DNA of 64,000 nucleotides from Eledone cirrhosa. Its lineage: Eukaryota. Both the position numbers and the translations under genes were made by a program. Under the pieces are notes generated by a model that was given only the letters and a program-made list of their open reading frames with translations, had not been told where the DNA came from and did not search any database. The stretch is from positions 18,414,001 to 18,478,000 of the forward strand of contig OZ024762.1 of assembly GCA_964016885.1 (NCBI GenBank). The letters run 5' to 3'. This document shows positions 62,789-62,853 of this stretch, in pieces. Position 1 is the stretch's first letter, and the number at the start of each line of letters is the position of its first letter.

Positions 62789-62853
62789 ATGCAGCCACCC
62801 TTAACTCTCTGTAATCGGGTGTCCCTCACCTTGTTCACCTGTGTACTTCTCGG
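62789..62853 (+). CDS. Putative first coding (signal-peptide) exon, probably of a secreted or membrane protein continuing beyond the window
   Basis: aagATG (A at -3), then MQPPLTLCNRVSLTLFTCVLL-GG|gtaggt, a phase-2 donor. Unspliced reading hits TAG at once. It is preceded by a low-complexity 5'UTR-like stretch and followed by AT-rich intron-like DNA. Confidence 0.62.

Follow-up and report, generated by a model that had tools for sequence, protein, structure and literature searches.

The window, by which we mean the whole 64,000-nucleotide stretch that was analysed, contains a gene for a Cys-loop ligand-binding domain (LBD), here called gene A, and a separate downstream exon that is likely to be the first coding exon of a second such gene, gene B. 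Both are on the + strand. Gene A exon 2 (42655-42871) encodes helix alpha1 and strands beta1-2 of the LBD. Exon 3 (45134-45234, WSDRRL..WTPN) is 101 nt long and ends in phase 2, and exon 4 (46969-47407) is coding up to a TAA stop. Exon 4 encodes a Cys-loop that is short (C-x10-C), and it contains neither vicinal cysteines nor a four-helix channel domain. Each of the three exons matched PF02931, in order (E 5e-7, 9e-6, and 2e-3). Exon 2 is 85% identical to Octopus vulgaris CAI9740374.1 over 59 aa, and exon 3 is 88% identical to its orthologs. The in-frame stop (47405-47407) follows the sole terminal hydrophobic stretch, and the complete A-type relatives stop at the same place. Candidate polyadenylation signals (AATAAA) were found by a motif scan at 47499 and 47516 (47499-47521). 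Among the 111 filtered ORFs of at least 70 aa in the window, there was no match to the channel domain PF02932 and no other gene above the Pfam cut-off.

Exon 4 was present in four sequencing runs (X1-X4) of one study, with the run type unrecorded; none of the runs listed was labelled as RNA. In the region examined (42480-42935), X1 gave a single unbranched contig of 970 nt, which spans 187 nt upstream and exon 2 without differences and runs on into exon 3, the first 30 letters of which are the loose end of the contig. The contigs of X2-X4 continue from exon 2 into the intron in the same region. X1 thus shows splicing between exons 2 and 3. Past exon 2 the X1 contig has another 566 letters and ends in a T-run. 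This is the combined length of exon 3, exon 4 including the stop, and 26 further nt, and by arithmetic only the contig agrees with a transcript that continues past the stop and has no channel exons. Its 187 upstream letters fit either of the two first exons described below by length, and the acceptor side (42594-42657) is masked as repeat. That X1 gave only one contig, with no branches, points to one dominant first exon, although contigs drop rare forms. Both first-exon junctions (18985/42655 and that of gene B) are putative and were deduced from the sequence.

Probable first exons of gene A and gene B

The candidates for first exons were all ATG..GT stretches of 50-95 nt that are stop-free and end in phase 2, on both strands (n = 2309). 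Each candidate was scored against each N-terminus, and 150 shuffled queries were used as the control.

Exon 2 of gene A begins at 42655 after TTGCAG and requires an upstream exon ending in phase 2, as the first-pass annotation had stated. That annotation found no convincing exon in 1-42654, but there is one at 18918-18985 (+). It has an ATG, an open frame of 68 nt ending in phase 2, a GTAAGT donor, and a hydrophobic core, and it likely encodes the signal peptide of gene A. A tblastn search with residues 1-20 of the O. vulgaris ortholog matched 18918-18980 (57% over 21 columns, E 0.5 alone). This match contains a one-residue gap; it was missed by an ungapped scan and recovered by a gapped search. 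The exon ranked 1 of 2309 against the O. vulgaris A N-terminus, where it scored 46 and the runner-up 23. None of the 150 shuffled O. vulgaris A queries attained 46 (best shuffle 38). Against the O. vulgaris B N-terminus its rank was 1972. The two Argonauta A N-termini placed it at ranks 1 and 3, but 71/150 and 123/150 shuffles equalled these scores. Summed over the three A-type N-termini, its score was 80 vs 45. Moreover, it is the only upstream + strand candidate with a good donor and a hydrophobic core that is not mostly microsatellite. When it was joined to exons 2-4 by script, a stop-free product of 274 aa was obtained across a GT..AG intron of 23,669 nt (18986-42654). This putative intron 1 is rich in microsatellites and repeats, and the low-complexity-filtered ORFs inside it had no Pfam match above the cut-off.

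The second exon (62789-62853, +) starts with an ATG, is 65 nt long, and ends with GG in phase 2 before a GTAGGT donor. Its peptide of 21-22 residues is hydrophobic and signal-peptide-like. It lies 15,382 nt downstream of the gene A stop. The first-pass annotation had described a phase-2 signal-peptide exon ending in GG about 15 kb past the stop that joins 42655 in frame, and both the description and the compatible phases hold. It had also called this exon a match for the LBD gene, and here it was mistaken: against the N-terminus of the true ortholog (CAI9740374.1) the exon ranked 1381 of 2309, near background. In a tblastn search within the window, the exon was matched by O. vulgaris CAI9740372.1, a B-type protein (E 5.6e-7), with 18/22 residues identical to the N-terminus. 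It ranked 1 of 2309 against this N-terminus (score 82; runner-up 31), and 0/150 shuffled O. vulgaris B queries attained that score (best shuffle 38). The A and B N-termini of O. vulgaris thus have mirror-image best matches, exon 18918 and exon 62789. The Argonauta B N-terminus put exon 62789 only at rank 252, and the Argonauta signal peptides appear too diverged to count as a test of either first exon.

The exon was the sole high-identity match in the window in tblastn searches with B-type proteins. The other matches were cross-hits of 34-61% on gene A exons, and no B exons 2-4 were found in the window. Only 1.1 kb of the window is left after the exon, and this stretch (62854-64000) is probably the first part of gene B intron 1, which would run off the window. 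An unrelated secreted protein had been raised as a coincidental source of the exon. This candidate was rejected because 18 of the 22 residues are identical to an LBD protein; the matched protein carries PF02931 and has an LBD-like predicted fold.

A CAA/CAG-type trinucleotide tract and then an A-rich run lie within about 250-700 nt before both first exons (18220-18720 and 62530-62790). By BLAST, the two first-exon regions resemble each other only weakly, at the level of microsatellites (66% over 140 nt). The tracts may reflect a promoter or 5' UTR feature that the two genes have in common, or merely the microsatellite load of the genome.

The window is animal DNA rich in microsatellites, and the repeat finder returned microsatellites only. 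When the window was aligned to itself by BLAST, none of the 40 longest matches was an exon duplicate. Four dispersed copies of one element, some 490-750 nt long and 90-96% identical, lie at 567-1124, 8764-9510, 38345-39091, and 42947-43516; the last of these is inverted and lies in gene A intron 2. This element is likely a young SINE or a transposon fragment. There are also two minisatellite arrays (2938-4237 and 14359-15681). In one the units are about 188 nt long and 96-97% identical, and a copy of 79% identity lies inverted at 60723-61189. In the other they are about 76-88 nt long and 85-94% identical.

Relatives and public gene models

Relatives were collected by searches with exon 4 and with its first match, and a small family was found. 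It appears to be a small molluscan group of transmembrane-less Cys-loop LBDs. The closest named relative of gene A is O. vulgaris CAI9740374.1 (85% over 131 residues), followed by P0005 (73%) and by GAB1609956.1 and GAB1609957.1 from Argonauta hians (50%). Judged by these relatives, the window is likely to be octopod DNA. The B type includes O. vulgaris CAI9740372.1, O. bimaculoides XP_052832247.1, and O. sinensis XP_029657928.2, which are 43-45% identical to gene A, and Argonauta GAB1609958.1, which is 35% identical to it. In a 13-row tree, the four B-type proteins clustered in a separate supported clade (100/98), and the A-type proteins formed no single supported clade (62/95 branch). More distant members are from Patella caerulea and from ENA and Logan records.

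The accessions of the O. vulgaris B and A proteins (CAI9740372.1 and CAI9740374.1) are two apart, and both list a longest contig of 48,210,619 bases. Similarly, the two A-type proteins and the B-type protein of Argonauta (GAB1609956.1, GAB1609957.1, and GAB1609958.1) have consecutive accessions, all listing a contig of 3,749,688 bases. Read from accession numbers and contig sizes rather than coordinates, the A and B genes are probably adjacent in O. vulgaris and Argonauta. The order of the Argonauta accessions, A then B, agrees with the order in the window. Furthermore, the O. bimaculoides B model diverges from O. vulgaris B exactly upstream of G|LTANLS. This break fits the exon border where exon 62789-62853 ends, and it shows that gene callers have trouble with the first intron of gene B. 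The first-pass annotation had preferred to read the exon as exon 1 of a neighbouring tandem paralog, which would imply a row of LBD-only genes whose first introns are very long. The match to the paralog N-terminus and the neighbouring accessions in two species support this reading.

Several public models of this cluster are defective. The O. vulgaris A record (P0007) is cut short at 158 aa, the O. bimaculoides B record (P0012) has an unrelated N-terminus, and the O. sinensis B record (P0013) has an internal start; P0005, P0012, and P0013 all come without a proper N-terminus. Residues 2-57 of P0005 match dispersed-repeat DNA in the window, at 45905-46054 (-) with 74% and at 19037-19116 (+), and thus the P0005 model spliced in a repeat in place of exons 1-2. 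The layout matters for annotation, since public models of the A/B cluster often have a wrong first exon.

Protein architecture and predicted structures

Gene A and the B-type proteins have a signal peptide, predicted by hydropathy and homology, and an LBD with no channel domain. The gene A product is 274 aa and the B-type proteins are 224-228 aa. In a hydropathy scan of the product of exons 2-4, the only 19-residue windows above 1.6 were at 47333-47392 (+). This C-terminal tail of about 20 residues is preceded by Ser/Gly/Ala-rich residues and is predicted to be a GPI-anchor-like signal or a single membrane tail. A GPI-anchored protein has an N-terminal signal, a small-residue omega site, a spacer, and a C-terminal hydrophobic stretch, with no cytoplasmic tail, and by its pattern the gene A tail resembles a signal for such an anchor. 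A similar tail was found in seven relatives (P0005, both Argonauta A-type proteins, P0008, Patella, and two Logan proteins). It was absent from all four B-type proteins, and the O. vulgaris A record ends before the tail. We infer that the A type would be GPI-anchored and the B type secreted.

Cys-loop receptors have a spacing of 13 residues in the loop. Gene A departs from this canonical spacing: both cysteines are present, 10 residues apart. The loop is also 10 residues in 10 of the 11 relatives that reach it, and 12 in Argonauta B. No vicinal cysteines (CC) were found in gene A or in any of the seven relatives checked, and the family profile has other residues in place of the binding-loop Tyr and Trp of the aligned alpha6 chain. 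The family thus appears to be without acetylcholine-binding residues. The tailed form with a 10-residue Cys-loop was also seen in distant members of the family: Patella caerulea KAK6187046.1 (P0010), P0016-P0019, and P0008. The tailed form may be older and the soluble B type derived.

The B protein model had a mean pLDDT of 64.6, with the last 50 residues under 50. It matched LBD chains of both AChBP and receptors (Foldseek E about 2e-11, TM-score about 0.57, 17-21% identity) and resembled the two about equally. An Argonauta A model built from six sequences had a pLDDT of 32.6 and was left out. The family profile matched nicotinic receptor chains at E 8e-23, the AChBP chimeras listed at E 1e-16, and CRT1 at E 1e-15; the CRT1 chains in this comparison were 379-410 aa.

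A complex of two O. vulgaris B chains and one Argonauta A chain was predicted with a score of 0.58, and the best of three controls reached 0.01. The runs agreed in at least 79% of contacts, and the partner pLDDT was at least 73. Of the solved complexes, 51 of 78 reached the mark for such scores, as did 2 of 108 mismatched pairs. Only 5 of the 78 reached it at 0.60 or under, but all four mismatches that passed did so. The support for this cross-species A/B complex is weak, and its score may be due to the likeness of its chains to solved pentamers.

Interpretation and comparison with known systems

We consider exon 62789-62853 to be exon 1 of gene B, the next head-to-tail paralog, and gene A to use 18918-18985 by ordinary cis-splicing, with a probability of about 0.92. 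Gene A would be spliced in cis from exon 18918-18985 over the 23.7 kb intron, and exons 2-4 of gene B would lie past position 64000. Both genes would descend from a common ancestor in which the intron behind the signal peptide was already in phase 2. Either first exon would then fit either second exon through this shared phase, which would explain the in-frame join of exon 62789 to gene A exon 2.

Since an upstream first exon is present, neither misassembly nor trans-splicing is needed to account for the layout. Exon 62789 might still be an orphan or misplaced, with the body of gene B deleted, pseudogenised, or placed elsewhere by a local misassembly. The missing exons 2-4 point in this direction, as do the long microsatellites of the region, where assemblies break, and the two of three Octopus B records (P0012 and P0013) that have no proper first exon. 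However, the exon is intact in its ATG, frame, and donor and keeps 18/22 identity to the O. vulgaris protein. The window contains no N, its A-then-B order is that of the Argonauta accessions, and the 1.1 kb that remains is short against the 23.7 kb first intron of gene A. We therefore regard an orphan exon as very improbable.

The chance is slimmer still that exon 62789 also serves gene A by trans- or back-splicing, giving chimeric transcripts with a B signal and an A body. Compatible phases and an in-frame join would allow such transcripts, and the X1 contig is compatible with them in that rare joins are dropped from contigs. On the other hand, gene A has its own upstream exon that matches the ortholog, and the one unbranched X1 contig enters exon 2 from upstream as expected for one dominant first exon. 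No joint of the 62853/42655 type was among those listed, with the acceptor region masked, and the trans-splicing suggested as an alternative by the first-pass annotation has no support. Just as doubtful is a layout in which exon 62789 belongs to gene B and the true first exon of gene A is another diverged exon or lies upstream of the window. The 18918 match is moderate (57% over 21 columns, tblastn E 0.5), and the Argonauta N-termini support it no better than chance. It nevertheless scored twice as high as the next candidate (46 vs 23) with 0/150 shuffles reaching it, and it stayed ahead over the three A-type N-termini (80 vs 45). It also has a consensus GTAAGT donor and the required phase, and the rival upstream + strand candidates with a good donor and a hydrophobic core are largely microsatellite.

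With exon 62789 assigned to gene B and exon 18918 to gene A, the splicing puzzle is gone and the layout is an ordinary tandem duplication. Of interest still is the protein family itself: a tailed and an untailed type are kept together in both Octopus and Argonauta, and the limpet Patella has relatives with a tail. The likeliest function, which we hold tentatively at a little under even odds, is that both types work outside the cell like AChBP, as pentamers that bind or scavenge some ligand that is not acetylcholine, with A tethered to the cell surface and B soluble. It is unlikely, though conceivable, that GPI-anchored A subunits hold mixed A/B pentamers at the cell surface that capture or present such a ligand, as a membrane-bound form of AChBP found from limpets to octopods. 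If true, a lipid-anchored AChBP-like protein would be a new use of the fold, as a surface decoy, scavenger, or co-receptor. The soluble B type should be easy to express and to screen for ligands.

Databases list the family proteins under automatically assigned names, for example 'acetylcholine receptor subunit beta-like'. A literature search by title and start of abstract, with most subscription papers and supplementary gene lists outside its scope, returned no report of a cephalopod LBD-only or GPI-tailed family. The pair of channel-less domains without the acetylcholine box is apparently undescribed.

Similar to the A/B proteins, molluscan and annelid AChBPs (Lymnaea, Aplysia, Bulinus, Biomphalaria, and Capitella) and the ACCBP variant have a signal peptide and a lone LBD without channel helices. 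Known AChBPs are soluble. Unlike AChBP, the A-type members carry a C-terminal hydrophobic tail, and by profile the family lies closer to the chains of nicotinic receptors than to the listed AChBP chimeras. In the accessible text on Biomphalaria AChBP (PMC3423370), gene duplication has given rise to subunit types, as in the A/B pair, and the Cys-loop spacing is 12 (C126-C139). The same text gives AChBP vicinal cysteines in loop C and a conserved aromatic box, whereas the A/B family has neither.

The octopus chemotactile receptors (CRT1 and others) are, like the A/B genes, cephalopod, divergent nAChR-like, and clustered. They are channels with four transmembrane helices. The four helices that follow the LBD in nicotinic and chemotactile channel subunits were not found here, and CRT1 was outside the best profile matches of the A/B family. 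Membership in the chemotactile receptors was rejected on the lack of a channel domain and the presence of introns. As far as the available part of one source goes, 26 receptor-like genes are clustered on one O. bimaculoides chromosome (PMC9068888). Another, which treats the molluscan nAChR clades, describes the chemotactile receptors as intronless in its accessible portion (PMC13174522), while three introns interrupt the coding sequence of gene A, which has no channel domain.

Molluscan nAChR genes provide a parallel in layout. According to the accessible part of PMC6896357, 55-65% of bivalve nAChR genes are in tandem arrays that were made by stepwise duplication, which is the same layout as the A/B pair. 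The arrays covered there are mostly intron-poor, whereas the A/B array keeps long introns and is LBD-only.
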